DNA of 64,000 nucleotides, taken from assembly GCA_963788655.1 (NCBI GenBank), contig CAWBHS010000072.1, positions 288,001-352,000 on the forward strand, written 5' to 3'. Position 1 is the first letter of the stretch, and every line of letters begins with the position of its first letter. Below the pieces are notes generated by a model, which did not search any database, was not told the origin of the DNA, and saw only the letters and a list, made by a program, of their open reading frames with translations. The position numbers and the translations under genes are program-made. Positions 6,417 through 61,630 of this stretch are shown here, one piece after another. Source of the DNA: an uncultured Verrucomicrobiae bacterium. Lineage in GTDB: Bacteria > Verrucomicrobiota > Verrucomicrobiia > Limisphaerales > JAFGQR01.

Positions 6417-6534
6417 CGTAGGACAGCCGTCCCGGCTGTCTCGAATGGCAAACGGCGCTCAACCACTGCAGGACGTTTCGTGACGAAAGGACCGACGTTG
6501 GGAAGTTCGAGACAGGCGAGACGCCTGTCCTACG
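6417..6534. repeat. GTAG-type REP doublet (GTAGGACAG family), copy 1
   Basis: CGTAGGACAGCCGTCCCGGCTGTCTCG ... CGAGACAGGCGAGACGCCTGTCCTACG inverted pair; related copies at 39938 and 61514. Confidence 0.85.
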
Positions 6535-16399: not shown

Positions 16400-16412
16400 T
16401 GCCAATTCAATC

Positions 16413-18454: not shown

Positions 18455-21832
<3,378 letters not shown>

Positions 21833-25314: not shown

Positions 25315-26487
25315 TTATTGAAACAACTGCGGAGCGAACTCATTCAGATACTCGCGCCAGTTGACCCAGGTATGCGCGCCGTCGCTTTCCTTGAAGACCA
25401 CGTCGAATCCGTGCTTTCGCAGCATCTCCACCGTGGCTTGAGACGTCTTGATCAGGAAATCGTCCTTGCCCGTGGCAAACCAGCACCGCTTGAGGCCTGG
25501 CTTCAACTCAGCATTGTCAAGCATGGCCTGATTCTTCTCCTCCCAAGTCGGGCCGCTGGCTGCGTTCGGATTGCGGTTACCACCAAGGCTGAACACGCCT
25601 GAGCTAAATACGCCGAGGTAGGCGAATTGGTCGAGGTGCGCGATGCCGATGTTCAACGTCTGCGCGCCGCCCATGGACAGCCCGGCAATGGCCCGATGCG
25701 CCCGGTCAGTGCGGATCCGGTAACGCTTTTCCACCAGGGGCATGATGTCGTTGACGAAGTCGCGCTCGAATTCATCGCCCGATTGTCGGCGCTGACGCAT
25801 TGAGCCGGTGTGTCCGGCGGGCATGACCACCACCATCGGCTTGGCTTTCTTCGCCGCAATCAGGTTGTCGAGGATGAATCCCGCCCGGCCAACCGTGCTC
25901 CAGGAATCGTCGCAATCGAACGCGCCGTGTAACAGGTAGAAGACGGGGAACGTGCCTGCGCCGGAAGCATAACCAGGCGGCGTATAGACGTGCATCCGCC
26001 GAAAACGTTTGAGCGTCGTCGAATAATAAGTGAGCTCCGCGACCGCGCCGTGCGGCACCTCTTTGGTGTCCATGAAATCGGCGCCCGGCACGTACACGAG
26101 GCTCCAGGTATTTTCGTTGGACTCGCTGGTGGTGGGATTGCGCGGGTCAATCACCGCGACACCGTCCACGTTGAAATGATAGCGGTAGGCGCCGGGGGCG
26201 ATTGGGCCGCAAGTGCCTTCCCACACATCGTTGCTGCCTTTAGTCATTGGCGGTGGCTGAGTCACTGCCTGCAAATCGCCACTGCTCAGGCGGACCGCCT
26301 CCGCCTTGGGCGCGTAAATTCGGAAGGTCAGCTTCCGCTCGGGGGAGATCGCCGGCGACACCACGGACGGTGGCCGTTGATTACGTGCGGATCGGTCCGA
26401 CGGCTGCCCCCACGTGGTGGAAGTGATCGATGAGATGGCGAGCAACGTTGTCGCCCAAATAGAACCGGTAAGGAATCGCGTGTTCAT
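25315..26487 (-). CDS. Secreted CBM48 + CE1-type esterase (acetylxylan/feruloyl esterase-like)
   Basis: Signal peptide, TFRIYAPKA/YRYHFNVDG CBM48 module, VPHG...VYTPPGY...YLLHG, nucleophile motif GLSMGG, GAHTWVNWR. Confidence 0.9.
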   Translation of the reverse strand: MNTRFLTGSIWATTLLAISSITSTTWGQPSDRSARNQRPPSVVSPAISPERKLTFRIYAPKAEAVRLSSGDLQAVTQPPPMTKGSNDVWEGTCGPIAPGAYRYHFNVDGVAVIDPRNPTTSESNENTWSLVYVPGADFMDTKEVPHGAVAELTYYSTTLKRFRRMHVYTPPGYASGAGTFPVFYLLHGAFDCDDSWSTVGRAGFILDNLIAAKKAKPMVVVMPAGHTGSMRQRRQSGDEFERDFVNDIMPLVEKRYRIRTDRAHRAIAGLSMGGAQTLNIGIAHLDQFAYLGVFSSGVFSLGGNRNPNAASGPTWEEKNQAMLDNAELKPGLKRCWFATGKDDFLIKTSQATVEMLRKHGFDVVFKESDGAHTWVNWREYLNEFAPQLFQ

Positions 26488-26499
26488 GGTTTGAATTCG

Positions 26500-26515
26500 T
26501 GCATATCGTGTGCCG
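26500..26515 (-). promoter_or_regulatory. Putative sigma54 promoter, near-leaderless
   Basis: CGGCACACGATATGCA (GG-N10-GC); ATG 26487 follows 13 nt after the GC. Confidence 0.45.
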
Positions 26516-26875
26516 CCACTGTAGGGGAAACGCACGATTTGTCGCGGATAATTTCTCAACCGCCATCGTTTACTGCACTTCAGGTCATCCCCGTTGCTGC
26601 CCGAACAGTGCGGCCGCTGAACCGATCCCTATCCGGCCTCGGCAAGGTTTATGATTCCGACAACAACCTGGTGCCGACATCAGCCGCCGCCTCGGCGCTA
26701 GCCTGCGTGAGGTAGCGCGGGCTTTGGGGTTATCTTCTGGCGGCTGTTTTCTACTGACTCGCCGGCGCCAACCGGCTAGGCTGGGCGCATGATACGGCGA
26801 AAGCACAATGTCCGCTGTAAACTTCGCAGTCACTGCGTTGCCCGCGCAACTCACCCGCTTAATTCTTAACGACCT

Positions 26876-28457: not shown

Positions 28458-30346
28458 ATGAACTGGACCACATGCTTGGCAATCATCCTCGCGAGCATTG
28501 GTCTGGTCCTCGTATGCGGTGGCTGCAACAAACAGGAATCCAAACTGAGCCAGCTCAAGACCAAAGCCACTCAAGGCGATGCCGAGGCGCAATTCCAGCT
28601 TGGGAAGATTTATGACGACGGTCGGCTCGTTCCCAAGGATGGTATCCAGGCCTTTACTTGCTACCGCCAGGCCGCCGAACAAGGGCACGCGGAGGCGCAG
28701 TTTCGCGTGGCGTCCATGTATGCCAGCGGTTACGGCGTAACCCTGGACGAGCCGAATCATTGAAGTGGATGCGCCGGGCCGCCGAGAACGGCGTGACCAA
28801 AGCGCAATACAACCTGGGCGTTGACTTTTATCACGGGCGTGGCACCGCCAAAGATTTCAGCCAGGCCTTTAAGTGGTTTCAGAAAGCTTCGGCCAAAGGC
28901 GACCCCGACGCCCAAGCCAATTTGGGCAGCATGTATGCCGATGGTGAAGGCGTGGAGAAGAATCTCCAAAAGGCGCTGCCATGGTTTCAGCGTGCCGCTG
29001 ATCAAGGGCAGCCGGCGGCGCAGAACAACCTTGGACAACTTTATTTCAGTGGTGAAGCCGTCGCGACGAATCCGGTGGAGGCAGTGAAATGGTTCCGCAA
29101 AGCTGCGGAGCAGGGATTTGCGGTCGGACAATACAATCTGGGGACGGCCTATCACGAAGGCACCGGCGTGGAAAAGAATGATCAGACCGCGGTGGAATGG
29201 TTCCGCCGGGCCGCAAAGCAAAATCTGCCGCAGGCACAATACGCGCTGGCGGGCCTCTACCGCCGCGGCGAAGGGGTATCCGAGGACAGCCGCGAATCCT
29301 TTCAATGGCTCAAGCAGGCCGCCGCCCAGAATTTCGCGCCCGCCCAATTGAAACTGGGAATGAGTTACCTGGTAGGCGACGGCACCACTACAAATCTGGA
29401 TGAAGCCATCCGGTGGCTTCGCCGGGCCGCCGGGCAGAATGAGGCCGAAGCGCAGGGCACCCTCGCCTTCCTGTATTGTGAAGGAAAAGTGGTCGCACAA
29501 GACATGAATGAAGCCTTGAAATGGTTTCACCAAGCCGCCGATGCGGGCAACGCGGAGGCCGAACGTAATTTGGGGATTCTGTACCAGAAGGGTCAAGGAG
29601 TTGAAAAAGATCTGGTCGAGGCGACCAAGTGGTTTCGTCGCGCGGCTGAGCAAGGCGATCCCCAAGCCCAAAATCATCTGGCGAACCTCTACGAAAATGG
29701 AACCGGCGTGGAGAAGGATATTCAGGCCGCCATCAAGTGGTATCGTCAGGCGGCCGAGCAAGGGGATGCTGTCGCTCAAAACAACTTGGGCGCCATCTTT
29801 GGCAAGGGCGAAGACGTAGCCAAAGATCCACAACAAGCGCTCTTCTGGTATCGCAAAGCAGCGGACCAAGGCGTCGCCATGTCGCAATACAACATCGCTG
29901 AACTGTATGCCAACGGAAGCGGCGTGACCCAGGATATTGCGCAAGCCATCCAGTGGTACAAGCAAGCCGCCGAACAAGATTTCATCATGGCCCAAAACGT
30001 CCTGGCCAAGTTGTATTACCAGGGCGAGCGCGTCCCTAAAGACGAACAGCAGGCTGCCTATTGGTTCCAGCGGGCGGCTGAACATGGAGACGCCAATTCC
30101 CAAAATCTGCTCGGTTTGCTGTACGCCATGGGAGAAGGCGTGGAAACCAATTACGTCGAGGCCTATAAGTGGCTGGACATCGCCGCCGCCAACGGCCACC
30201 CCCATGCGTTGGCCAGCCGGGCGAAGGTTTCCTTGCAAATGGACCCGGACCAACTTCGGGAAGCCCGGCAACGCGCCAGAGAATTTCTGGACCGACAGCC
30301 GACCAATGCGCCGCCGGCTCCAGGGAAAGCCAAGCCAACTCCGTGA
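28458..30346 (+). CDS. Sel1-repeat lipoprotein (15 repeats counted; frameshift near 28750)
   Basis: Hydrophobic signal ending VCGGC (lipobox-like); 36-aa AQxxLGxxYxxGxGVxKDxxxAxxWxxxAAxQG repeats. Confidence 0.92.
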
Positions 30347-30479: not shown

Positions 30480-31949
30480 ATGTTCATAATGATGATAACG
30501 CCGGAGTGCGCTCCGGCAGCGAAGGTCGGCGGTCTGGCGGATGTGATCCACGGCCTGTCGCAGGAATTGGCCATCCGCGGCCATGCGGTGGAGATCATTC
30601 TGCCCAAGTACGACTGTATGCGGTACGACCGCATCCACGGTCTGGTGAAGACGTACAGTGACCTGTGGGTGCCGTACCATAACCAGTGGATTCACTGCGA
30701 CGTGTACTTCGGGTATGTGGACAGCTTGAAATGTTTCTTTATCGATCCGCACTCAGCCCACAACTTCTTCAATCGCGGCGCGTGTTACGGCCTCAAAGAT
30801 GACACGGAACGTTTCGCGTTTTTCTGCCGGGCCGCGTTGGAGTTCATGCTCAAGACCAACAAGCATCCGGACATCATTCATTGCCACGACTGGCAAACCG
30901 GCCTGGTTCCTGTGCTCCTCTATGAAACGTACCAGCAGTTGGGGATGACGCATCCACGGGTTTGCTACACGCTGCACAACCTCGGGCACCAGGGCATCCA
31001 CGGCGAGAAGATCCTCCGGCAGGTCGGCCTGAATCCCGGACCCCTCATGACCCCCGAACGCTTGTTGGACGACCGTCGGCCCGGCGCCATCAACTTGATG
31101 AAAGGCGGGATCGTCTATTCAAATTTTGTAACCACCGTTTCGCCCCGTTACGCGTCCGAAATTCATCACAGCCACTTGGGCATGGGGCTCCAGCGGATCC
31201 TGCACGTCCACCAGCAGAAATTCGGCGGCATCCTGAACGGCGTGGACTACACCGCGTGGAACCCGGAGATCGACGGCCACATTGCCCACCGTTATGGCCT
31301 GGGCAATTTGCAGGACAAATACCACAACAAGGGAGCCCTGCGCGCCCGGCTCTGGCTGCGCCACGATTTTAAACCGATCGTTTCCTTTGTCGGCCGGCTG
31401 GATTACCAGAAAGGGGTTGGTCTCATTCTGCAAGCAGTGCCCTATTGCTTGCAGCACGGTTGCCAGGTGGTCGTTTTGGGTTCGAGCCCGCATCGGAGCG
31501 TCAACGACGCCTTTTGGGGCCTCAAGCGGATGTTTAATAACCATCCCGATTGTCATTTGGAAATCGGGTACCACGAGGATTTGGCCCATTTGATTTATGC
31601 CGGTTCGGACCTGATCCTGGTGCCCAGCGAATACGAGCCGTGCGGTTTGACGCAGATCATTGGTTTGCGCTACGGCACCGTGCCGGTCGTGCGCAATACG
31701 GGTGGCCTGGCAGATACGGTTTTCGATGCCAACTACTCCCACCGGCCGTATCACGAACGGACGGGTTTTGTCTTCAACGACTACAATTGGCCCGGCCTGG
31801 AATCCGCGCTCAGCCGCGCCATCGGCTTGTGGTACAATTATCCGCAATATTTTCGAGAACTGATGGCCAACGGTATGCGTTACGATTTTTCCTGGAATTA
31901 CCCCGGCACGCATTACTTGAACGTGTATAATTACATCAAAGCGCCTTAG
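30480..31949 (+). CDS. glgA: ADP-glucose glycogen/starch synthase (GT5), GlgA2/SSIII-IV type
   Basis: ECAPAAKVGGLAD, PKYDCMRYD, IHCHDWQTG, TLHN, GILNGVD, GRLDYQKG, PSEYEPCGLTQ, TGGLADT. Confidence 0.95.
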   Translation: MFIMMITPECAPAAKVGGLADVIHGLSQELAIRGHAVEIILPKYDCMRYDRIHGLVKTYSDLWVPYHNQWIHCDVYFGYVDSLKCFFIDPHSAHNFFNRGACYGLKDDTERFAFFCRAALEFMLKTNKHPDIIHCHDWQTGLVPVLLYETYQQLGMTHPRVCYTLHNLGHQGIHGEKILRQVGLNPGPLMTPERLLDDRRPGAINLMKGGIVYSNFVTTVSPRYASEIHHSHLGMGLQRILHVHQQKFGGILNGVDYTAWNPEIDGHIAHRYGLGNLQDKYHNKGALRARLWLRHDFKPIVSFVGRLDYQKGVGLILQAVPYCLQHGCQVVVLGSSPHRSVNDAFWGLKRMFNNHPDCHLEIGYHEDLAHLIYAGSDLILVPSEYEPCGLTQIIGLRYGTVPVVRNTGGLADTVFDANYSHRPYHERTGFVFNDYNWPGLESALSRAIGLWYNYPQYFRELMANGMRYDFSWNYPGTHYLNVYNYIKAP

Positions 31950-31998
31950 GCGCCGGTATCAAGTGGCGGTGGCACCTTGTTGCCGCCGGGATGTGATA

Positions 31999-32138
31999 AA
32001 TGACCAATGTGCAATGACCAATGACCAGAGAATGCCCGATGACCAATGACCAGTTGGCCCGGGAAGGGTCGCCGGATTTCAAGGTGGAGCTTGGACATTG
32101 GTCCTTCCTTGGTGCTTGGGCATTGGCTATTGGGCCAT
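31999..32138. repeat. Inverted heptamer-array element, copy 2
   Basis: AATGACCAATGTGCAATGACCAATGACC...ATGACCAATGACC ... TTGGACATTGGTCC...TTGGGCATTGGCTATTGGGCCAT. Confidence 0.75.
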
Positions 32139-32180
32139 CCGGGTTTTTCGAGTCTTGGCGCCAGCCGGCGCGCAAGACCC

Positions 32181-32395
32181 GTCGAGCGTTGCCTTCCCCC
32201 TCACCCCGACCCTCTCCCTTGGGGAGAGGGAGCCCGTTCGCCGCGGACGGGAGCCCGCGGATGGCACTCAGACCTTCGAGACCGCTTTGCACAAAAGTCG
32301 AAGGGGCGGTCAATGCCACGGGCAGGTTCATATCAAATCGCAGCACCGCTGGCTGTTCCCTCTCCCTGAGGGAGAGGGTTAGGGTGAGGGGGAAC
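32181..32395. repeat. CCCTCACCCC/GGGAGAGGG REPIN, copy 1
   Basis: CCCCTCACCCCGACCCTCTCCCTTGGGGAGAGGG ... CCCTCTCCCTGAGGGAGAGGGTTAGGGTGAGGGG; collinear with 36141-36353. Confidence 0.85.
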
Positions 32396-32492
32396 CAGGC
32401 TCCCTTGGTCCAAATGGCCGTCAGGAAATTCAGCGGGTGGTCAAGCCTGGCGCGAAGCCGAAGGCTTCCCCCAACCAGCTCAGTAACAATCG

Positions 32493-35400
32493 ATGAACAT
32501 GGATAGTAGTTCGGGCAAAGTCGCAACAAAGGAATCGAGCGAGACGCAGACGGCTGCACACAATAGTCGCTCGAAAAACACCGCCACCATCACCACCCAG
32601 AGCGGGCTCGATTTGCAGGTGGAGACGTTGGCCCGCCAGGGCCAACTCGAAGTTTCGCTCCACGCGCCTGCCGGCAAACGTTGCGTTTTGCACTGGGGCG
32701 TTCGGCGCCAAATGCAGCAGGACTGGGCCGCGCCGCCGCAGTCGGTGTGGCCGCCGGACACGCAGCCAATGGGAGTGACCGCGGTGCAAACACCGTTCGC
32801 CAAACAGAATGGCCAGCTCGGCATCGACATTCGCATGGACCTTGCTGCGGACTACGCCTCGCTGGATTTTGTGATCTTCTTTCCGGACGAAAAGCGCTGG
32901 GACAACAACGGCGGCCGCAATTATCAGGTGGCTCTGACCAAGTCCAAACCGACGACCGATCCGCAGGCAGTCTTGCGGGCACGGTTGGGCGAAGAGGAAT
33001 TGCTTTTTGAACGCGCGTTCGATCTTGGCAACCAAGCAAAACTCGCGGTGGCCGTGGTCCGCACCGAGCAACAATATCGCTTCGAGGCGCTCACCAATCT
33101 CGGCGGACCGTTGCTGTTGCATTGGGGCATTGCGCGTCGGTCCCCGCGCGAGTGGCTGCTGCCGCCGGAGTCGATGCGCAATCACGTGACGACTGGCTTT
33201 GACGATCACGCGGTGCAAACACCCTTCGAAACGCAGGAAGGTTTCAACGCGCTCGCGCTCGCCGTCGCCGAGTCCGATGCGCCCCTGGGTTTGAATTTCG
33301 TGCTCAAACAAAACACGCCCGAGGGACGCTGGCTCAAGCATCGCGGCGGCAATTTCTACGTGCCGATCCACCAGGCCGCGACACAAGCCGGCGGCCAGGG
33401 TCTGGGCGAACTGGCTGGCCTGGCGGATGAAATCATCCAGGCCGAGACGGGACACAATTCCTGGACGTTGATGCATCGGTTCAATCTTTGTTACGACCTA
33501 TTGGACCGGGTCCAGCACAGTGTTGAAGGACAGGCGCTGCTTTATGTATGGCTGCGGTTCTCGGCCATTCGCCAGTTAACCTGGCAACGCAATTACAACA
33601 CCCAGCCACGCGAATTGGCGCACGCGCAAGACCGCCTGACGCAGAAGTTGGCCAACGTCTTTCGCAGCGAACCGGAAACGCGCCCGTTGGTTCGTTTGGC
33701 CCTGGCCACGGTGGGCCGCGGCGGTGACGGACAACGGGTGCGCGACGAAATCCTGCACATCATGCACCGGCACAACATCAAGGAAGTGACCGGCCATTTT
33801 CTCGAAGAATGGCACCAGAAGCTGCACAACAACACCACGCCCGACGACGTGGTGATTTGCGAAGCCTATCTCGAATTCCTTTACAGCAACGGCAATCGCG
33901 ACCGCTTCTATCAGACCCTGGAAAACGGCGGCGTGACCAAGCAGCGGTTGGAGAGCTTCGAACGGCCCATCCGGACCGAGCCGCAATTCGCCGGTCACCT
34001 CAAAGACGCGCTGATTCCTGACTTCCAGAATTTCTTGCGCGTGCTCAAATCCGTTCATTCCGGAACCGATTTCGAAACCGCCGTCAATGCCGCGCGCGGC
34101 CAGTTGGATGGCGACCTGCAAGGACTGCTGCACTACCTGGGCGAACACCGCAACGATCCGCCCGAGGGCGTGGTGAACTTGGTGAACCAAATCACCGACG
34201 CGCGGCGCCGCTTGTCCAATCGGCTGAACCAGGACGGCGGCTTGCGCGAATTACTCTACCTCGATCTGGCCCTGGAACAACTGCTGCGTGTGTCCGTGGA
34301 ACGGCATGTCCACTTGCGCTTCAATGGCGATCAGTTGGTCGATCTCATTGCCCGCGCGCTGGAGAACGTAACGCTGACTTACGAAGATCCCGAACTGGCT
34401 GCCTGTGCGCGTCACTGGGAACGATTGCAAGGCCTGCCACGCTTCAATGCCGATTGGGCGTTGCACGCCAAGTCCGTCGGTGACCGCATCGCGCGCGCTT
34501 TGACCACTTGGATTGATCGTTTCTATCAACTGCTCCAACCCAAGGCCGAATATCTCGGTGCCGGATTCCAGGCCGAGCCGTGGACGATCACGCTCTTCAG
34601 CGAAGAAGTGGTGCGCGGAAGCAGCCTGGGCTTCGTGGTGTCCATGCTGTTGCACCGCCTGGACCCGCTCTTGCGCAAGGCCGCCAACATCGGCGCCTGG
34701 CGCATCATCAGCCGCGGCGGCGGGGGCGGTCAAATTGAAGTGGTGGACAAGTTGGGCTCGATTCAAAACCAGCGCTTTGACAAACCCACCGTCGTTGTGA
34801 CGGACAAAGTGATGGGCGACGAAGAACTGCCCGACGGGGTCACCGCAGTCATCGCTCCGGACGTGACCGATATCGTGTCGCACGTGGCGGTGCGGGCGCG
34901 CAACTCGAATGTCCTGTTTGCATCCTGCCATGATCCGGAAATGTTGGCGCACTTGAAGTCGCTTCGCGGGCATCATGTTCATCTGACGGTCAATCCGGCC
35001 GGCGACGTGATCGTGCAGGAAACCGAGGCGGATGCGCCGGCGGCTGCGATCGAGTCGGTTCAGGAACGAATTTCACTCACGCCACGACAGTTCACGAAAT
35101 ACGCCATTACGCATGAAGAATTCCGCGAGGAACTCGTGGGGGGCAAGTCATGTCACCAGGCAGAACTGCGCGGCAAGTTGTCCGATTGGATTCATCTCCC
35201 GGCCTCGGCGGCGATTCCCTTCGGCGTCTTTGAAAAGGTATTGGGGTTACCCGCCAACCAGGAGTTGGCCAGGCGTTGCCAGGAGTTAACTCGACAAGCG
35301 GAAACCGGCAACACCGAAGCACTGGCCGACCTGCGGCGAACAGTTCTCCAATTGACCGCCCCCGACGAATTGCCGGACACCTTGCGCCAAGGCATGACCA

Positions 35401-36068
35401 AGGCCGGTCTGGATTGGCCTGCGGATTGGGACAAGACCTGGCGTTGCATCAAACAGGTCTGGGCTTCGAAGTGGAATGACCGCGCGTTCCTCAGCCGCAA
35501 GAAACTCGGCATCTCGCACGACCAACTGTTCATGGCGGTGCTCATCCAGTCGGTGGTGCCGGCGGATTATGCGTTCGTGGTCCATACGGTGAATCCGTCC
35601 ACCGGCAACGCCAACGAACTCTTCGCCGAAATCGTGCTGGGCCTTGGCGAAACCCTGGTCGGCAATTATCCCGGACGCGCGTTGAGTTTTGTGGTGGACA
35701 AAACGTCCGGCGCGCAGACGTTGCTGTCGTATCCCGGCAAAAGTATTGGCCTCTACGGCAGTGGCTTGATTTTCCGTTCTGACTCCAACGGTGAAGATCT
35801 GGCGGGATTCGCCGGCGCCGGCCTCTACGAAAGCGTCTTGCTTCAACCACCCCGCGTCGTGGAATTGGATTACACCGAAGAGCCGCTGGTGTGGGACGAG
35901 CGTTTCCGCCAGGACCTGCTCCAGACGATTGCGAAGATCGGGTTGGAAGTCGAAAAAGCCTTTGGCGCGCCGCAGGACATTGAAGGCGCGGTAGCGCGAG
36001 GCAAATACTTCGTTGTGCAAACGCGGCCGCAGGTGGGACTGGAGTCAACGACCGGCAGCAAGGGCTAA
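32493..36068 (+). CDS. Alpha-glucan, water dikinase (GWD1-like) with two N-terminal CBM45-like modules
   Basis: Two LHWG...W..PP...QTPF modules; TLMHRFN, WLRFSAIRQLTWQRNYN.QPREL, GRGGDGQRVRDEIL, EEWHQKLHNNTTPDDVVICEAYL, phospho-His DIVSHVAVRARN, VWASKWNDRA, GLGETLVGNYPGRA, FRSDSNGEDLAGFAGAGLYES, QDIEG, VQTRPQ. Confidence 0.93.
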   Translation: MNMDSSSGKVATKESSETQTAAHNSRSKNTATITTQSGLDLQVETLARQGQLEVSLHAPAGKRCVLHWGVRRQMQQDWAAPPQSVWPPDTQPMGVTAVQTPFAKQNGQLGIDIRMDLAADYASLDFVIFFPDEKRWDNNGGRNYQVALTKSKPTTDPQAVLRARLGEEELLFERAFDLGNQAKLAVAVVRTEQQYRFEALTNLGGPLLLHWGIARRSPREWLLPPESMRNHVTTGFDDHAVQTPFETQEGFNALALAVAESDAPLGLNFVLKQNTPEGRWLKHRGGNFYVPIHQAATQAGGQGLGELAGLADEIIQAETGHNSWTLMHRFNLCYDLLDRVQHSVEGQALLYVWLRFSAIRQLTWQRNYNTQPRELAHAQDRLTQKLANVFRSEPETRPLVRLALATVGRGGDGQRVRDEILHIMHRHNIKEVTGHFLEEWHQKLHNNTTPDDVVICEAYLEFLYSNGNRDRFYQTLENGGVTKQRLESFERPIRTEPQFAGHLKDALIPDFQNFLRVLKSVHSGTDFETAVNAARGQLDGDLQGLLHYLGEHRNDPPEGVVNLVNQITDARRRLSNRLNQDGGLRELLYLDLALEQLLRVSVERHVHLRFNGDQLVDLIARALENVTLTYEDPELAACARHWERLQGLPRFNADWALHAKSVGDRIARALTTWIDRFYQLLQPKAEYLGAGFQAEPWTITLFSEEVVRGSSLGFVVSMLLHRLDPLLRKAANIGAWRIISRGGGGGQIEVVDKLGSIQNQRFDKPTVVVTDKVMGDEELPDGVTAVIAPDVTDIVSHVAVRARNSNVLFASCHDPEMLAHLKSLRGHHVHLTVNPAGDVIVQETEADAPAAAIESVQERISLTPRQFTKYAITHEEFREELVGGKSCHQAELRGKLSDWIHLPASAAIPFGVFEKVLGLPANQELARRCQELTRQAETGNTEALADLRRTVLQLTAPDELPDTLRQGMTKAGLDWPADWDKTWRCIKQVWASKWNDRAFLSRKKLGISHDQLFMAVLIQSVVPADYAFVVHTVNPSTGNANELFAEIVLGLGETLVGNYPGRALSFVVDKTSGAQTLLSYPGKSIGLYGSGLIFRSDSNGEDLAGFAGAGLYESVLLQPPRVVELDYTEEPLVWDERFRQDLLQTIAKIGLEVEKAFGAPQDIEGAVARGKYFVVQTRPQVGLESTTGSKG

Positions 36069-36140
36069 GGCTTCAGGTGATGAAACGGACAGTTGCAACT
36101 CAGTCTTTCGGCGTGGCACACGTTGCGCCCAGGCTGGGTT

Positions 36141-36353
36141 GTCGAACGCGTTGTTCCCCCTCACCCCAGCCCTCTCCCTTGGGGAGAGGGAGCCCGTTTG
36201 GCCCGCCTCGAAAACAACGAATGGCACTCCGACCGTCGATGCCGCTTCGCGCGAAAGTCGAATGGGCGGTCAATGCCACGGACCAGCTCGAATCAAAGAG
36301 CAGTGCCTTCGGCTGTTCCCTCTCCCTGGGGAGAGGGTCAGGGTGAGGGGAAG
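36141..36353. repeat. CCCTCACCCC/GGGAGAGGG REPIN, copy 2
   Basis: Same arms and shared spacer words (ATGGCACTC, AAAGTCGAA.GGGCGGTCAATGCCACGG, GGCTGTTCCCTCTCCCTG) as 32181-32395. Confidence 0.85.
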
Positions 36354-36380
36354 CACAACAACTAAACTCCCCGCATTTTC

Positions 36381-39300
36381 ATGATCCCCATCGGCAACCA
36401 GACTTCATTCTCCGCGGCCACGCCCACCGTGCCGTTTGATTACGCCCGCGCCAATGACTTTGATGCGTTTGAATGGTTTCCCGACAAGAAACCCGACGGC
36501 GCCGGTTGGGACGAAAGCGACTTGGATGAATCGCGGCGCCGGCACCTGGCCGAACTGGCGCGGGCGCAAAACATGCGCGTGTCCGTTCACGCCCGTTGGC
36601 AAGCCGATCCGCTGCGACCTGGTGCCCAACCGCTACTACTGAGGGATCTTGGACTGGCCCGCGATTTGGGCGCCGTGCTGGTCAATATTCACTTCAACCA
36701 CGAGCAAGGAGTCGAAGCATACGTTCAAGCGGTGATGCCGTTTGTTCGCCAAGTTGGTGAGGTGGGACTACAGCTTGCCATCGAGAATACCCCGCATCAT
36801 GCGCCGGAACAGTTTAACGAGTTGTTTGCGTGCTTGCAGGCGCTCGGCCGTGAAACCGTTCAGCACGTGGGAATGTGTTTTGATCTCGGCCACGCCAACC
36901 TGTGCGCGGCAACCCGTAACGATTATTTGCAGTTCCTCGACCGACTCGATCCGCGCGTGCCAATCATCCATTTGCATTTGCACGAGAATTGGGGTGATGC
37001 TGACAGCCATTTGCCGCTGTTCACCGGTCCCGCGGGGCGGAATGATGCAGGCATTCGCGGCCTGCTGGAACGGTTGCGTCAGCGTCAATATGCCGGCTCG
37101 ATCATCCTCGAACAATGGCCCCAGCCGCCTTCGCTGCTGAACCACGCGCGCGACCGGTTGCTTGACTTGCTTAATTCCTGTAGCAACGGGCGTGAGTCCG
37201 CTCATACTTCTCGTGCATCTGACGTAGCGGCGTCTCGTGAGAGCGCCGCTGACTTGAGCGAAACAAATTTGCAGCGCTCTCACGAGACGCCGCTACGCTC
37301 AGAGGTGGACGATTTCCAGGGCAAACTGGTCGCCGCTGATCAACAGCGCCGCAGTTGGCGGGAGAAGCTGGATTTCGTGCAGGGCCTGTTCACGGACGAC
37401 GCGACACCGCTCACGTCGGAGCAATTGGTCGATATTGCCATCTACCTTCGTTTCCTGGGCACCGGTGAGATCGTATGCGTCGAGGACGGACGGCACTTCC
37501 GTCCGGCCCACCATGCGCGCATGGCCCTGGAGATTCAGCGACGGTTGGCCGAACTGACCACGCCCGACACGGCGTTTATCGCGCGCAAGATTTATCCCTG
37601 GTTGCCCTCCTCGGCCCGGAGCTTTCAGCGCGCTGAGCCACTGACGCGGATTCGCGACATCGCGCATCGCAACGACATTCCCCAGGACCTGAAACGCGAA
37701 ATCAAGCACACCCTCCAAAACAAGCTGCATCGCTGTGCGGGGCCCGAAGACCTGGTGACCTCCACGAAACTGTTGGAACGAATCACCGCGCCGGCGGCCG
37801 ATTACGCGTCGGACTTTGTCGAGCAATTCAAAATTTTCCATGAAGAACTGAAAGAGTTTTTCAACGCCCAATCCTTGGACGAACGGCTGGATGCGCTGTT
37901 GCCCCACGTCGGCGCCAAGGAAACCGAATTGATCCAGCGGTTTCACAAACAGAAAACCAGCACAGCCCAGCCGGCGCTACGGGACGCCTTCAAGTCGCTG
38001 ACCGAATTGCGCTACTGTTTCCTGGAGGGCGCCGCCAAGTGCAAGCCGGAAGAAAAGCAGGAGTTCCTGCTGGCGGACATTGGGCTCGAAGATTTTGCCT
38101 TCGTCCTGTTGAGCAAAATCTTCAATGTCTTCGACGTTGCCAGGACCAAGGCCAAATGGGAACCGCTGCTGGAAACGCTGCGGTTGACCATCACCAACCT
38201 CGCCCTGAGCCGCGTCCAGCCTGAGGAATGCGACGCGCTGGGAGCCGAACTGCGGACTTGGAGCGCTGAACTGAATCCAAAAGACCGCGAACAACTGTTA
38301 CGTTTGAAAGCCACTGCGGACCGTTGTCGGCGTCTGGCGGAAGCTTACAGCGACCGGATTGCCGCGCTGTTCTTTCGGCGGGCCCGGGATCTGGGTCGCG
38401 CGCTGGAGGTGCCCGCGCATGCCATCCAGGTGTACTGCGACTCCGAAATCCGCGGCCATATCGTTTTCCAACTGGCGAAGCTGGTTTCCAGTCTCTTGCG
38501 TCGCGTCCGCGAGCAACTCGAATTGCCCGCCTGGGATGTGCTGGTTGCTGGGCAGGCGAGGGGCCGGTTGCGGATCACCAACCTGCTGGACGATGTGGGC
38601 CAGGATTTGCGCGAGCCCACCGTGGTGATTTTGAGTAACGCGGAAGGCGATGAAGAAATCCCGCAAAGCGTCACCGGCATTGTGCTGGGACACGGTATTC
38701 CGCATTTGTCGCATCTCGGAGTGCGCGCCCGTCAGGCCGGGGTGGTGCTGGTCACTTGCGAGGAGCCGGAAACGTTCAAGCAACTGGAGTGCTTCGATGG
38801 CCAATCGGTCTTGCTGTCGGCGACTCCCGAAAACGTAGAATGCACACCGGCCAAAAGCTCCGCCGCTACGACAAGCAGGGCTCCGGGCAGACCAGTGCTA
38901 GTTCCCGAAGTGCGCCTCGATCCCAAACGGCCTTGGCTGCCCCTGGAACAGGTCACTCCGGAATCCGGCGGGGGCAAAGCAAACGGCGCCCGGCGTTTGG
39001 CCGAATTGGCCCGCCGGAATGATGCCGGATTCAACACTCCCACCGGCGGCGTGATTCCTTTTGGCGTCATGGAAGCGGCGTTGCGCGCCAGGCCAGAGGT
39101 GGAAGCGGAATATGGCAAGCTACTCCAACAGGCCACCGGGAAGTCGGCTGACACGTTGACCGCGACAGCGGAACGGTTGCGCAGTTTGATCCAGCAGTTC
39201 GAGGTGCCCGAAGCGATTGCCAAAGCGATTGCCCAGACATTCAAGCCAGACGCCCGACTCATCGTCCGATCGAGCGCCAATTGCGAGGACTTGCCGGAAA

Positions 39301-39903
39301 TGGCCGGCGCCGGCCTCTATGAATCCGTCGCGAATGTGGCGCCCGCGGACGTAGCTGACGCCGTGCGGACGGTGTGGGCGTCGCTCTGGACCCGACGGGC
39401 CGCCTTAAGCCGTCAGCAAGCCGGTATTCCGCACGAACAGGCGCATATCGCAGTGCTCATCCAGGAGTTGCTCACGCCGGACTGCTCGTTTGTCCTGCAC
39501 ACCGTCAATCCGATCAATCACGACGCCGATGAAGTCTATGCCGAACTGGCGATTGGGCTGGGAGAAACACTCGCGTCGGCGGCTATTCGCGGCAATCCGT
39601 ATCGATTGATTTGCCCCAAAAGCTCCAAGGCAGTCACCACACTGGCCTTCGCGAACTTCAGCGAGTCGCTCTGGCCTGATCCCGCCGGCGGTCTGCAACG
39701 CAAAACGGTGGACTATTCGCGCGTCGAGTTGTCGCGAAACGCCGAAGCTCGCCAGCAACTCGGAAGACGCCTGGCGGCCATTGGCCGGTTGGTCGAAGCA
39801 GAATTGAAATCCCCCCAGGACATCGAAGGCGCGGTAGTTGGCGGCAGACATTTACCTCGTGCAAGCACGTCCACAACAGGGGCTGGGTAGCTATGAGCGC
39901 TAA
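36381..39903 (+). CDS. Phosphoglucan, water dikinase (PWD/GWD3-like) fused to an N-terminal xylose-isomerase/AP-endonuclease-2-like TIM barrel; frameshift near 39845
   Basis: TIM motifs IENTP, CFDLGHA, HLHLHEN, DSHLP, ILEQW. PWD motifs SWREKL, EDGRHFRPAHHA, PLTRIRDIAHRNDIPQDLKREIKHTLQNKLHRCAGPEDL, phospho-His PHLSHLGVRARQ, VRSSANCEDL..AGAGLYES, GLGETLAS, QDIEG. The alternative frame gives DIYLVQARPQ...* ending at 39903. Confidence 0.92.
37223..37297. repeat. GTAG-type REP doublet inside the PWD coding sequence
   Basis: Perfect 24-bp inverted repeat CGTAGCGGCGTCTCGTGAGAGCGC (37223-37246) / GCGCTCTCACGAGACGCCGCTACG (37274-37297). Confidence 0.85.
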
Positions 39904-39937
39904 CTCAGGCATGTTACCTATGGATACAGAAGGCGAT

Positions 39938-40054
39938 GTCGGACCGGCGTCCCGCGTGTCTCGAATTTCCCAACGACGCTCGACGTATCGCGGAACTGGC
40001 TGCAACGGTTGGGAGCCGCTGGTCATTCGGGACAGCCGGGACGGCTGTCCTACG
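39938..40054. repeat. GTAGGACAG-family REP doublet, copy 2
   Basis: GTCGGACCGGCGTCCCGCGTGTCTCG ... GGGACAGCCGGGACGGCTGTCCTACG; inverted relative to 6417-6534 and shares spacer sequence with it. Confidence 0.8.
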
Positions 40055-40088
40055 GGCGTGTTCGCTCATTTGGATTTCCAATAGATTC

Positions 40089-41273
40089 ATGCGCCCCTCG
40101 CTTCCCCAGCATCCGCCAACCCTCGGGTTGTTCGAGAAACGGATCGACGGTGACGATTGCCTGATGGATTTGGCCCGGCTGCGTTTTCAGCAGGCTGGTA
40201 TGGGCACGGAAATGCACGCCGGCACACCCGCAGAATTGGATTGGGTCATGCAATGGCGTCCCTCGCCAGCGACACCTGTCGTGGTTCACTTGCCGCGGCA
40301 CTTCGATCTGACCGACGAGCACACGCGAGCCCAAGTTCAGGGAATGGCTGCTTACTCTGCCGGCCGGATTCATGGATTCGTGCTGCACGACGGCGCCGAT
40401 ATGGCGGTGCGCGCCGCAGACTATCACCGCGCGGCTCAGGAAATGGAATCGCGACTGGCGCGCATCCAGCAATGCCCGCTGCTGTTCATCGAATACGCGG
40501 CGGGCTTGGAACCGGATCTTTTCGCCGGTTTCTTTTCCTCCATCCGCAACTTGTCCCGTTTGAGCGCCTGCATCGACATCGGCCATGTAGGCATTCGGCA
40601 GGCGCGGAAAGCGTTTGCGCAGGTGCATCCCGGCGAAGATGTATGCGCGCTGAAGTCCAATCCTTCCCGCCTGCCGCAACTCATGCCGGACGTGGAAGCC
40701 GCAGTGCGAACGGCTTTACCAACCGTGCTGCACCTGATCGAAACGCTCGGTGCGCTGGGTAAACCGATTCACTTCCATTTGCACGATGGCCACCCACTTT
40801 CCACCTTCAGCCCGTTCGGCGTCTCGGATCACTTGAGCTTTTTCCAGGAGATGCCGCTGCCCTTCGATTGCCATGACCAGCAATCGTCGCCGTTGATGTT
40901 TGGTCCGAACGGCCTTTCCCGAATTGTCGCCAAAGCGATGGAGGCCATCGGTCGCGAACGGGTTTCGTTCACATTGGAAATTCATCCGACCTTCGAACGC
41001 CTGGCGTTGGGCGACGCGGCCAACCTCTTTGAGCATTGGCGTGACCGGACCAACGCCGAGATGATGAACCACTGGCTCGCGGTGCTCAGTCGAAACCATG
41101 AACTACTGCTGGCGGCAATCAGCAAGCGGGCGGCCGATGCGTTGGTGGCGCACTTGATACCTCGCCCGACGCCGTTGGTTTTGAACTCGCCCAGGCGACA
41201 GATAATGGCTCCGGTGATTCCTTGCGGATTCGCAACAATTTTGGAATCGCGTGCGATCAGTCCGCCGTTCTGA
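40089..41273 (+). CDS. Xylose-isomerase/AP-endonuclease-2-like TIM-barrel metalloprotein
   Basis: VVHLP, VLHD, FIEY, CIDIGH, HFHLHDGH, SDHLSF, FTLEIH. Start placed at ATG 40089, after the REP. Confidence 0.75.
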   Translation: MRPSLPQHPPTLGLFEKRIDGDDCLMDLARLRFQQAGMGTEMHAGTPAELDWVMQWRPSPATPVVVHLPRHFDLTDEHTRAQVQGMAAYSAGRIHGFVLHDGADMAVRAADYHRAAQEMESRLARIQQCPLLFIEYAAGLEPDLFAGFFSSIRNLSRLSACIDIGHVGIRQARKAFAQVHPGEDVCALKSNPSRLPQLMPDVEAAVRTALPTVLHLIETLGALGKPIHFHLHDGHPLSTFSPFGVSDHLSFFQEMPLPFDCHDQQSSPLMFGPNGLSRIVAKAMEAIGRERVSFTLEIHPTFERLALGDAANLFEHWRDRTNAEMMNHWLAVLSRNHELLLAAISKRAADALVAHLIPRPTPLVLNSPRRQIMAPVIPCGFATILESRAISPPF

Positions 41274-41318: not shown

Positions 41319-43374
41319 TCACTTGGTTTTTGACTTCTTTCCGGTCTGCTTTTCTTTCGCACTGGAGACTGATACGGGCACCGTCGTGGTCGAGCTGTTT
41401 CCGGAGGCGTCAGTGCAGCGGACGGTCAGGGTGTAAACGCGATCCGCGCTTTTGCTGCTCTCCGCGCGCAGATTGGCTGTGAGCGGGCCCGTGAGCTCCC
41501 AGTCAGGACTGGTGTTGTCGCCCTTGCCAGTAGCCGGTTCACTGCTGTTGATGGCAATGAGCTCGACTGCCAGCGTCGGATCGCAATTGTCCGATACGGC
41601 GACGTTCAAGGTGACCGCCACCATCTTCTTATTGGCAGGCCACAAAGTGGGCTGATCGACGGTTACGCTGGCGATGACCGGAGCAGTGACATCTTTCACT
41701 GAGAGCGTCATCGTGCATACGCTGCGATTGCCGGCAGCATCCGTGACGGCCAGTTCGACCGGATAATCTCCCGAGACCCACCAACGTTCCGGCGACTGGA
41801 CTTTGGCTGAACACCAATGATTCCGCCGGGGTGCAGCCATCGGTCGCAGTTGCGAGCGAAATCAAATCAGGAATGGTTGCCTGGCAAGCATCATTCGCCG
41901 GCAGTTCCGAAGTAGTGGGGCAAACGATCTGCGGGGGCGTGGTGTCCACAACGGTGACCGTTACCGTATCCTCGGACGATTCACCCGCCGGGTCGGTGAC
42001 TTTCAACGTAAAGGTGTTAATGCCATTGCCCACCACCACGGGAATCGCGACCTCGGTTCCCAGCAAGTGGCCGTCGCAATACCATTCATAAGTCAGCGCA
42101 TCGCCGTCCGGATCCTGCGACGCGGCGCCATCGAGCCTTACCGTTGTGCCCGCGCCGGCGCATTCGACCTGTTGATCGGGGCCCGCATCGGCGACGGGAG
42201 GATTGTTGGCTGGGGCCCGATTCAAGGAGAGCAGAAACCATTCAGCGGAGCGGTTGATCACGCCATAGCCCAAGATGTGGCCGCCATCACTGATGTTGTA
42301 GGCGGCGAGCAGTTCCCATCCGGAGCCGGGAGGCAAGAGCGTGTTGAGGTCCACCATGGTCCCGTTTTCCCAGAGAAAGGCGTGACCGGCACCAGTGGCA
42401 TCTGCCGATTCACCGACCACCTGGCCGGATTGATTCATGTCATAGACACTGCTGTAAGATCCACCAAGAGTTTCCAAATCCGTCAGGGCCCCGTCCGCGT
42501 AAATGAAACCGTGCCAGCCCCGGGACGCTGTAAGCGAATCTCCGCTGACCTGCCCTTTTCGATTGATCGCCACCGGGCTGGTGTAGCCTCCGCCCAAGGT
42601 CCCCAAGTCGTGCAAGTTACTGCCATCGTAGAGAAAACCGTGCGTTTCCCGATTCTCTGCCGTGTTCGCAAAACCGGTGATCCAACCGTCGTCATTGATA
42701 TCCACCGCCGAACTATAAGTGCCGCCCAGCGTGCCCAGGTCGGTCATGGAACCATCCCGCCACAGAAACGCGTGCGTCTCCTGGTTGTCGGTTGTGGTGG
42801 ATTCCCCCACCACCCAACCGCGGCCGTTCAGTCCGTAGCACGAACTGTAGGCCCCGCCCAAGGTTCCCAAATCGATCATGCTGTGGCCGTCATAGAGAAA
42901 AGCGTGCGTATCGTAGTTGTTGGCGATCACTGAATCACCGGCTACCCAACCGGCGTCGTTGATGGCCACGGCGGAACAGAACCACCCACCCAAACTGCCC
43001 AGACTTTCCATGCGACCATCGCGAAATAGGAACGCATAAGTGGCGGCGTCATTCGCCACGGCGGAATACCCGGCAACTTGTCCGCTCGCGTTGATGGCGA
43101 AGGCGGCGCTGTAGGAACCACCCAACGTGCCGAGGTCCATCGTCATCGCCTCGCTAAAAACGTAGGCGTGATCTTCGGCATTGCCCAAGGTCATGGAATC
43201 TCCGGCCACCACCCCTTGCGCGTTCACCGCGTAGGCCGTGGCATAGCTGCCGCCCAAGGAGCCCACGCGGACGATGGTCGGCGTCTGGCTCTGAGCGCGA
43301 GTTTGAACAAGAAGAACGGCGAGAACTGCGATCCAAGTTCCCACCCCATACAACTGGTTGGCTTGGTGTTTCAT
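41319..43374 (-). CDS. Secreted protein with HAF-type extracellular repeats, PKD and HYR-like domains (frameshift near 41775)
   Basis: Signal peptide; repeated DLGTLGG.YS.A..IN..G.V.G.S......HAFL; NNPPVADAGPDQ; DTTPP; LWPANKKMV...RVYTLT..TDASGN. Confidence 0.88.
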
Positions 43375-43662: not shown

Positions 43663-43899
43663 TTGGGATGGACGACGCATGGTGACATTCAATCGGCTCG
43701 TTCTGCCTCATCCTAACCCTCTCCCCAAGGAGAGGGAACAGATGGAGGTGCCGCTACGGAAACCAAGGGACATCGTGTTTTCAGAAGTCCGGTCATCGAT
43801 TCTCCCTCTCCCTGGGGGAGAGGGCCGGGGTGAGGGGAAACAAAACCATCGGTTAATCCAAAGTGTATTCCATCCAGTCAACTGCACAGTACATCCCAA
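43663..43899. repeat. CCCTCACCCC-family REPIN, copy 3, inside possible MITE ends
   Basis: CCTCATCCTAACCCTCTCCCCAAGGAGAGGG ... CCCTCTCCCTGGGGGAGAGGGCCGGGGTGAGGGG, flanked by TTGGGATG.AC / GT.CATCCCAA. Confidence 0.7.
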
Positions 43900-61439: not shown

Positions 61440-61513
61440 ATGCGGATGATGACAAAGCACACTTTGAATTTTGCATATCGATTGGGACTGAACCACGGCG
61501 CTTCGAACACTCC

Positions 61514-61630
61514 CGTAGGACAGGCGTCCCGCCGGTCCCGTTCTTCCAAACAGCGTCCAATGATCTGCGGCACGTTTCCTGTCCAATTGCCGCCGTTCGC
61601 CGTTCGAGACAATCGAGATGGCTGTCCTAC
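61514..61630. repeat. GTAGGACAG-family REP doublet, copy 3
   Basis: CGTAGGACAGGCGTCCCGCCGGTCC ... GACAATCGAGATGGCTGTCCTAC. Confidence 0.78.

Follow-up and report, generated by a model that had tools for sequence, protein, structure and literature searches.

The DNA analyzed here is a stretch of 64,000 nt from an uncultured Verrucomicrobiae bacterium (contig CAWBHS010000072.1, positions 288,001 to 352,000; hereafter the window), in which four plus-strand open reading frames (ORFs) lie side by side between positions 30480 and 41273. They encode the glucan synthase GlgA, a homologue of the plant alpha-glucan, water dikinase (GWD; P0001), a TIM barrel fused to a second dikinase of the phosphoglucan, water dikinase (PWD) type (P0002), and a second, divergent TIM barrel (ORF4). 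We propose with moderate confidence that this cluster encodes, beside the glucan synthase, a bacterial system by which the cell phosphorylates its own storage alpha-glucan reversibly. By analogy with the plant enzymes, P0001 would move the beta-phosphate of ATP onto its catalytic His797 and then to a glucosyl residue of an ordered alpha-glucan, probably at C6, and the dikinase core of P0002 would probably add a second phosphate at C3. The TIM barrel of P0002 and ORF4 are predicted to be metal-dependent phosphoesterases of the endonuclease IV (Endo IV) type that strip the glucan phosphate again, so that one putative phosphatase would accompany each dikinase: the TIM protein the GWD, and ORF4 the second dikinase. 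In the eukaryotic cycle, as outlined in two articles (PMC13666283; PMC12892837), removal of the C6 and C3 phosphates lets hydrolases proceed. The TIM proteins may fill the role of the eukaryotic phosphatases SEX4, LSF2 and laforin; this likeness is one of analogy, as these have the dual-specificity phosphatase fold and no kinship to the TIM proteins in sequence or fold.

The co-orientation of glgA, the two large ORFs and the TIM-barrel gene, described in the initial annotation of this DNA, is borne out by their coordinates. Likewise, every motif which it named for the two large ORFs is present in the translations, and Pfam places the phosphohistidine domain ahead of the nucleotide-binding domain in both proteins.

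P0001 (32493..36068, plus strand, 1191 aa) was expected to belong to the GWD family, and its domain set, its match to the central domain of plant GWD and its position in the tree agree on this. The Pfam domains are two copies of Ig_N_CWD1, followed by GWD1_pHisD and PPDK_N. The N-terminal CBM45-type Ig-like modules stand in tandem (PF23166, 154.2 bits over two stretches), the second at 33009..33368 with its best stretch at residues 173-292 and the first copy upstream of it. The central helical domain (residues 301-732; 33393..34688) aligns in a phmmer search to chain residues 16-467 of PDB 9ha9_A with 319 bits, and the solved central domain of plant chloroplast GWD is matched with E-values of 5.1e-94 (9ha9_A) and 5.7e-93 (9qvi_A). 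The phosphohistidine domain (34695..35030; PF22973, 117.9 bits, residues 735-846) carries the catalytic His797 within SHVAVRARN, and the stretch from S796 to N804 is invariant in all 20 aligned bacterial homologues. It is followed by the nucleotide-binding, ATP-grasp domain (35313..36044), where PF01326 scores 98.9 bits in two stretches within residues 980-1181 and where matches to phosphoenolpyruvate (PEP) synthase chains of the PDB span residues 941-1184. Models of PEP synthase and rifampin phosphotransferase reach 67-73 bits on P0001, on the ATP-grasp part only. The characteristic motifs are WQRNYNTQPRE, EEWHQKLHNNTTPDD, SHVAVRARN and, near the C-terminus, FRSDSNGEDL. Because of the Pfam domains, the central-domain match to 9ha9 and the low scores of the PEP synthase and rifampin phosphotransferase models, P0001 qualifies as a GWD at every level that sequence can address. 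By domains, motifs and tree it would be a GWD of orthologue grade, with activity on C6 predicted by analogy.

Plant and algal GWD1 (potato R1, Arabidopsis SEX1; EC 2.7.9.4) has the same domain order as P0001 and shares with it two motifs, SHVxVRARN around the histidine and RSDSNGEDL late in the sequence. P0001 differs in being about 250-300 aa shorter than the plant GWD representatives, in lacking a transit peptide and DUF7067 (PF23229, absent from P0001 in the Pfam scan), and in belonging to a bacterial clade of its own, apart from plant GWD, with a support of 100 in the Shimodaira-Hasegawa-like approximate likelihood-ratio test (SH-aLRT). After the catalytic His, P0001 reads LFASC; this is the position at which plant GWD has its redox-regulatory CFATC motif.

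The second large ORF had been read as a PWD, and this reading stands for its catalytic core and not for the protein as a whole. P0002 spans 36381..39903 on the plus strand; the ORF as listed runs from 36381 to 39890 (1169 aa), and the end expected from homologues is a TAA at 39901-39903. Its motifs are PLTRIRDIAHRNDIP...QNKLHRCAGPEDL, PHLSHLGVRARQ and RSSANCEDL. The phosphohistidine domain with PHLSHLGVRARQ lies at 38529..38861 (PF22973, 85.3 bits, residues 717-827) and the nucleotide-binding domain with RSSANCEDL at 38970..39836 (PF01326, 125.3 bits, residues 864-1152). Models of PEP synthase, pyruvate, phosphate dikinase (PPDK) and rifampin phosphotransferase score at best 128.6 bits, again on the ATP-grasp part only. 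P0001 and P0002 are 28% identical across their last ~600 residues, and in their pairwise alignment the motif xRSxxNxEDL..AGAGLYES comes late in P0001, whereas P0002 has it in the canonical mid position; this is the difference on which the initial annotation had based its distinction between GWD and PWD. PWD/GWD3 (EC 2.7.9.5) resembles P0002 in the central, phosphohistidine and ATP-binding parts, has RSSANxEDL in the same mid position and falls in the same half of the tree. Representatives that bear a CBM20 score 226-342 bits against the central domain of P0002 and 0-14 bits against that of GWD, so that the catalytic core of P0002 sits with the CBM20-bearing eukaryotic PWDs. However, Pfam finds no CBM20 (PF00686) in P0002; residues 19-251 are covered by a PF01261 TIM barrel instead, some relatives carry ORF4 as a C-terminal domain, and P0002 belongs to a separate bacterial clade. 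The layout PF01261, PF22973, PF01326 recurs in all of the 120 best P0002 homologues listed. Judged by its domains, P0002 is a new architectural variant rather than a canonical PWD.

Relatives of both dikinases are numerous. A profile of the two dikinase cores, run on 1.84 billion representatives, matched 16,870 proteins at E<=0.001, of which 762 remain at the stricter E<=1e-30, and the best 150 of these 762 divide cleanly by their central domain into a GWD type and a PWD type. A Pfam scan covered 38 of the 150, picked for length or for absence of the TIM barrel: CBM20 occurs on 11 PWD-type representatives, none of which has the TIM barrel, and the 16 long GWD-type representatives all carry Ig_N_CWD1, seven of them together with DUF7067. 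Names were obtained for 20 representatives. On the GWD side they include Gossypium, Volvox, Cyanidium, Stentor, Gloeochaete, Rhodomonas and Cryptomonas, and the three named PWD-type representatives with CBM20 are Porphyridium (labeled 'phosphoglucan, water dikinase'), Mesotaenium and one MMETSP transcript. The cryptophyte Hanusia has a PWD-type representative without a CBM20 match.

A FastTree phylogeny of 136 rows, with 16 partial representatives left out, separates the two halves with a support of 100 and places P0001 in a clade of 33 rows (93) and P0002 in one of 50 rows (98). A quick IQ-TREE phylogeny (LG+G4) was built from 56 hand-chosen rows, consisting of named or domain-labeled eukaryote representatives and translations from the bacterial loci described below; the GWDs of loci L005 and L063, neither of which has a single ORF of at least 950 aa, were omitted. 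SH-aLRT support reaches 100 for each of the two halves, as it does for the group of 12 bacterial GWDs and for that of 13 bacterial PWD-type proteins, and P0001 falls in the same half as the GWD representatives of Gossypium, Volvox, Cyanidium and Stentor. Of the 18 eukaryote GWDs, 13 join the bacterial GWD clade in a group supported at 96, which nests that clade among eukaryotes. When the 18 eukaryote GWDs were constrained to group together, the log-likelihood was 6.8 higher and the approximately unbiased (AU) test gave p 0.707, i.e., eukaryote monophyly is not rejected, and the PWD half is a three-way fork. For these two reasons we claim no direction of transfer between bacteria and eukaryotes. 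Branching within the bacterial clades departs from the phyla, e.g., Scalindua groups with Nitrospirota, which suggests that these genes have been passed among bacteria.

The TIM barrel of P0002 occupies residues 1-267 (36381..37181; PF01261, 73 bits at residues 19-251). Its AlphaFold2 (AF2) model has a mean predicted local distance difference test score (pLDDT) of 96.0 and a predicted template modeling score of 0.93. The best Foldseek match is MJ1311 (PDB 3wqo), with a template modeling (TM) score of 0.76-0.78, which is deposited as 'D-tagatose 3-epimerase-like protein'. It is followed by the apurinic/apyrimidinic (AP) endonuclease of African swine fever virus (ASFV), UlaE, and Endo IV of T. 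maritima, E. coli and M. tuberculosis, and TM scores are 0.61-0.69 for the ASFV, E. coli and T. maritima Endo IV enzymes. Table 1 of PMC2770678 names MJ1311 as the predicted M. jannaschii homologue of Endo IV. A profile of the TIM family places Endo IV family chains next after MJ1311 and ahead of any epimerase. The sole NCBIfam match of the domain is CbiR phosphodiesterase, with 38 bits under a cut-off of 105.

Twelve residues of the TIM domain are invariant in 35 sequences: H70, H104, E135, D168, H171, H197, H199, H201, E202, D208, H210 and E244. The three metals of Endo IV are bound by H69, H109, E145, D179, H182, H216, D229, H231 and E261, and Endo IV also cleaves 3'-phosphates from a sugar hydroxyl. 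The profile motifs nIH, IENT and CxDxGHA align with E. coli Endo IV, at positions up to 183, and four of the invariant residues align with residues of that enzyme in the profile alignment. Provided that the Endo IV ligand list given here holds, the TIM domain would contain the full three-metal ligand set. Taken together, Endo IV (Nfo) and MJ1311 share with the TIM domain a common fold and the motif series vH, nIH, IEN, CxDxGHA, HxHxH, DxH, E; the setting differs, being glucan metabolism, fusions included, for the TIM domain and DNA repair for Endo IV. Removal of 3'-phosphates by Endo IV would be a chemistry close to the hydrolysis of glucan phosphate monoesters. It is because of the Endo IV-like profile matches, the invariant His, Asp and Glu set and this chemistry of Endo IV that we propose the TIM protein and ORF4 as putative glucan phosphate esterases.

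ORF4 is listed as an ORF of 445 aa at 39936-41273. Its homologues in an alignment of 18 sequences start at the residue equivalent to M52, so that the gene proper lies at 40089..41273 on the plus strand and encodes 394 aa, and the first 51 codons (153 nt) of the listed ORF are a repeat element which forms a false 5' extension. Scans of ORF4 against Pfam and NCBIfam gave no match, and in the protein atlas it falls only in clusters named 'hypothetical protein'. Residues conserved in the 18 sequences are H67, H100, E135, D163, H166, H228, H230, D233, H235, D247, H248, E297 and H299, a set parallel to that of the TIM domain. The AF2 model is an alpha/beta barrel (pLDDT 85.7), which Foldseek matches at TM 0.35-0.56 to ASFV AP endonuclease, xylose and rhamnose isomerases, ketose epimerases and Endo IV. 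BLASTP between ORF4 and the TIM domain of P0002 reached only E 0.095, and the two could be linked only by comparing their profiles with each other; hhalign gave 94.3% with E 1e-7 over 113 columns. This link and the modeled barrel confirm the earlier assignment of the fourth gene as a TIM barrel. ORF4 is, on the profile evidence, a distant paralogue of the TIM barrel of P0002, and it is far more diverged from Endo IV than that domain, as its TM scores and the missing Pfam match indicate. The TIM fold of the xylose-isomerase-like superfamily is thus borne out by AF2 and Foldseek for both proteins, with the PF01261 match on the TIM domain only.

In a scan of one genome per species, a GWD relative is encoded by 266 of 185,579 species genomes, and 80 loci were kept for comparison. 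As labeled, these belong to at least nine phyla: 23 to Nitrospirota, 18 to Verrucomicrobiota, 14 to Thermodesulfobacteriota, seven to 'Deltaproteobacteria' (Myxococcota at NCBI), three to Planctomycetota (Scalindua, Anammoxibacter), two to Acidobacteriota and one each to Omnitrophota, Deferribacterota, Nitrospinota and Pseudomonadota, with nine unplaced. The labels also mark 78 of the 80 as metagenome-assembled genomes, and no named cultured strain is among the 80. In the protein set clustered at 90%, the candidates scored include more than 1800 relatives of P0001 at E<=0.001, and P0002 has more than 1290. The best 120 relatives of P0001 are 58-70% identical to it and have the identical set of three Pfam domains. 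P0001 is closest to Verrucomicrobiota, being 70% identical to the GWD of L019 and the sister of that of L012 in the tree (97). The automatic annotation of JGI already names many P0001 relatives 'alpha-glucan, water dikinase' and many P0002 relatives 'phosphoglucan, water dikinase', and the gene calls as such are therefore not new. The earlier view that the genes are native to bacteria agrees with their relatives in 266 species genomes and with the alpha-glucan genes around them. Eukaryotic contamination was considered and is ruled out by the bacterial flanking genes and by the 266 bacterial genomes with relatives.

Gene order in these loci shows that the constant partner of the bacterial GWD is the TIM barrel, not the second dikinase. 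In 66 loci the sequence extends at least 900 nt beyond the GWD gene, and in 58 of them a P0002-type TIM barrel starts directly after it. The TIM match is at least 230 aa long in 57 loci; here the TIM barrel is free-standing in 31 (266-353 aa), fused to the second dikinase in 21 (>=900 aa) and part of an ORF of other length in five (687-705 aa in four of them, and 720 aa in the fifth, where the contig end cuts the ORF). The ORFs of 688-705 aa after the GWD gene in L039, L040 and L062 consist of the TIM barrel and the first half of a PWD-type protein (~47-48% coverage of the dikinase) and are either truncated variants or split genes.

ORF4 in turn accompanies the second dikinase. Of 24 loci in which the second dikinase is full-length, 20 have a complete ORF4; L002, L070 and L076 are cut by contig ends, which leaves L052 as the one true absence. 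Among the 31 loci with the TIM barrel only, ORF4 occurs in one (L043). In two loci the TIM barrel, dikinase and ORF4 form a single ORF (L048:3313-7782, 1490 aa; L051:13065-17531, 1489 aa). A complete C-terminal ORF4 domain is found on the dikinase in seven of the 150 family representatives (P0260, P0266, P0268, P0305, P0322, P0354 and P0391, which represent 50% clusters), and a fragment of it in an eighth. An apparent fusion of ORF4 to a 430-aa domain in L027 and L080 was rejected as an artefact of extending the ORF through a stop.

The neighborhood is also one of alpha-glucan genes. GlgA (>=55% identity) is present in 18 of the 80 loci, and in eight of these it lies at most 662 nt upstream of the GWD gene and co-oriented with it, as in the window. 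Other recurrent neighbors are GH57 (8 loci), GH77 (7), a GlgB-like gene (6) and GH57 with DUF3536 (6), and GlgC (4), phosphorylase (4) and an isoamylase-like gene (3) are less frequent.

A number of observations weigh against a reversible cycle of this kind. Eight of the 66 loci have no TIM gene after the GWD gene (L007, L011, L012, L014, L018, L031, L055 and L056). In L012 a GH57 gene (L012:13492-14673) starts right after it, and such a gene of ~394 aa is found in eight loci; it may be an alternative partner of GWD, in a position known from L012. A polypeptide that combined a kinase with a putative phosphatase would have to be regulated in some way if futile cycling is to be prevented, and regiospecificity is beyond what sequence can tell, C6 and C3 being assigned by analogy. 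Finally, as noted above, the TIM model has its best Foldseek match in an epimerase-like entry, UlaE scores level with Endo IV, and the free-standing TIM proteins bear the label 'sugar phosphate isomerase/epimerase' in public annotation.

Because UlaE matches the TIM model as well as Endo IV does, a role as isomerase or epimerase is the main rival for the TIM proteins. The dikinases would then be real, and the TIM barrels would be isomerases, epimerases or hydratases acting on phospho-oligosaccharides or modified glucose, or else glucan-binding modules that replace CBM20, in whose place in eukaryotic PWD the TIM domain sits. The structural matches fit this alternative, with MJ1311, UlaE and psicose and tagatose epimerases at the top for the TIM model and xylose and rhamnose isomerases for ORF4, as does the public label. 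However, ketose epimerases have a single-metal Glu-Asp-His-Glu site, and both the TIM and the ORF4 families conserve many more His and Asp than such a site requires. The ranking of Endo IV chains before any epimerase after MJ1311 in the TIM profile also speaks for a phosphoesterase, and a metal-ligand set that is invariant over 35 sequences would be unexpected for a mere binding module. We therefore consider this alternative possible, if rather doubtful.

A different alternative accepts glucan phosphorylation and concerns its target, which might be ordinary soluble glycogen or another polysaccharide, phosphorylated for regulation or stabilization in carriers without semi-crystalline granules. 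Nothing within the window points to a semi-crystalline glucan, a further point against an ordered substrate; neither the window nor the other loci contain a gene specific for crystalline glucan, and the neighbors belong to ordinary glycogen metabolism. A 2026 review (PMC13666283) describes the presence of phosphate on bacterial glycogen as unknown. On the other side, P0001 retains tandem CBM45-type modules, and a 2026 preprint (10.64898/2026.09.25.754361) reports a perfect correlation between GWD and semi-crystalline glucan among eukaryotes, and starch-like material in 'some Verrucomicrobia'. On balance, soluble glycogen or another polysaccharide appears unlikely as the target, and we prefer an ordered, possibly starch-like storage glucan.

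The last point against the proposed system is the C-terminal frameshift in P0002 itself, which raises the question of whether the module is decaying in this genome. The reading frame of P0002 breaks near 39845, and the final ~20 codons no longer follow the frame of the homologues. The latter end in ..DIEGAVVGxxIYLVQSRPQQGL, and the tail of P0002 as read in the window is ..DIEGAVVGGRHLPRAS.., so that the frameshift deletes the conserved C-terminus ..IYLVQxRPQ. The +1 frame reads ..DIYLVQARPQQGLGSYER up to the stop at 39901-39903 and agrees with the C-termini of the homologues P0123 and P0124. If P0002 were a pseudogene and the two-step system lost, the repeat elements that occupy all spacers of the cluster would fit, as would the breaks in three upstream genes: GlgE is split into 16347-18113 and a GLGE_C piece at 18076-18420 in different frames, TreS-maltokinase (18459-21829) into at least four pieces in different frames, and MalQ (GH77) into 22966-24582 and 23960-25102, likewise in different frames. 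Yet the breaks examined are frame changes, two of which resemble single extra bases, and glgA, the GWD gene and ORF4 have intact reading frames. If the shifted tail is left aside, P0002 and its best homologue share 65% identity over 99% of the length, which an indel-type assembly error fits better than decay. One upstream break that was examined closely, in the TreS-maltokinase region, is a single extra base. Since the breaks in GlgE, TreS-maltokinase and MalQ resemble that in P0002, we favor an assembly indel over gene decay; the break in the P0002 tail is probably such an indel, and loss of the system in this genome seems improbable. Stop-codon reassignment was also considered for the two in-frame stops of the TreS-maltokinase region and rejected, as a one-base change of frame at the first stop restores the conserved reading and indicates indels.

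That the two large ORFs are relatives of PEP synthase, PPDK or rifampin phosphotransferase with no link to glucan has practically no probability left, since these families share PPDK_N, i.e., the ATP-grasp domain, and swiveling phosphohistidine chemistry with P0001 and P0002 and hence yield weak matches (at best 72.9 and 128.6 bits for P0001 and P0002 against cut-offs of 883 and 999; 5- to 20-fold under curated cut-offs overall, 73-129 bits against 598-999), but have the reverse domain order and none of the glucan-related central or N-terminal domains, whereas the matches to GWD-specific Pfam domains and to the central domain of plant GWD are strong.

Glucan phosphorylation is treated as a eukaryotic invention in current reviews. 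The September 2026 review (PMC13666283) describes prokaryotes as lacking 'known glucan phosphorylation machinery' and homologues of laforin or SEX4. Our literature searches, in which subscription journals were thinly covered and an earlier description is possible, found no paper on bacterial GWD or PWD. With bacterial GWD and PWD-type enzymes at hand, the origin of the starch phosphorylation pathway would become directly testable. In both the GWD and the PWD half, the bacterial clade may be the sister group of all eukaryotic members, and the pair could therefore predate or have seeded the eukaryotic starch pathway. We put forward only tentatively, as a prospect more doubtful than the cluster's own role, that many uncultured bacteria put phosphate on a starch-like storage polymer and take it off again in a full, self-contained cycle, that the Endo-IV-like TIM enzymes are a new class of glucan phosphatases, and that the gene pair has such an early origin. 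By record labels, the carriers of that cycle would be Verrucomicrobiota, Nitrospirota, Thermodesulfobacteriota, anammox Planctomycetota, Acidobacteriota and other phyla. If this is true, some bacteria are predicted to store an insoluble glucan, and the TIM barrel and ORF4 would point to a new phosphatase family. Moreover, the bacterial dikinases are intron-free, with ~1150-1190 aa shorter than plant GWD, and have no transit peptide, and they would serve as material for structural and mechanistic work.

The first gene of the cluster, glgA (30480..31949, plus strand, 489 aa), matches the NCBIfam model NF001905 (GlgA) with 854.5 bits, above the cut-off of 560, and Pfam Glyco_transf_5 with 235 bits; its product is clearly predicted to be a glycogen/starch synthase of the ADP-glucose type. 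The G+C content is even throughout the cluster (0.57-0.61) and matches that of the remaining window. In addition to GlgE, TreS-maltokinase and MalQ, the window upstream of the cluster encodes an esterase-family protein with an N-terminal, glycogen-binding CBM48 module (25315-26559, minus strand), which lies among the alpha-glucan genes. A 562-aa protein of 13 Sel1 repeats (28658-30346) adjoins glgA on its upstream side, and its DNA has a periodicity of 108/216 nt.

The intergenic repeats noticed in the initial annotation were found among the cluster genes as elements of 191 and 117 nt. Two copies of the 191-nt element (family D2), 77% identical and with palindromic GGGAGAGGG motifs, lie at 32181..32371 and at 36141..36331, the latter in the spacer between the GWD gene and the P0002 gene. 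They flank the GWD gene in its spacers, and the family is built on the palindrome TCCCTCTCCC..GGGAGAGGG..GGGTGAGGGG, with related arms at 43697-43851. The spacers that these repeats fill in the window measure just 2-30 nt in other genomes. The 117-nt repeat (39938..40054), which makes up the false 5' end of ORF4, has an inverted copy at 6417-6533 (pair I1, 78%). This family has a GC-rich hairpin core (CCGTAGGACAGGCGTC) and forms pair I9 with 61504-61540, in a copy region at 61504-61551. On the minus strand, 41629-43374 and 52102-56043 encode repeat proteins predicted to be secreted or to lie at the surface, one of which combines HAF repeats with a PKD domain and two of which have RCC1 repeats; they have no relation to the cluster.

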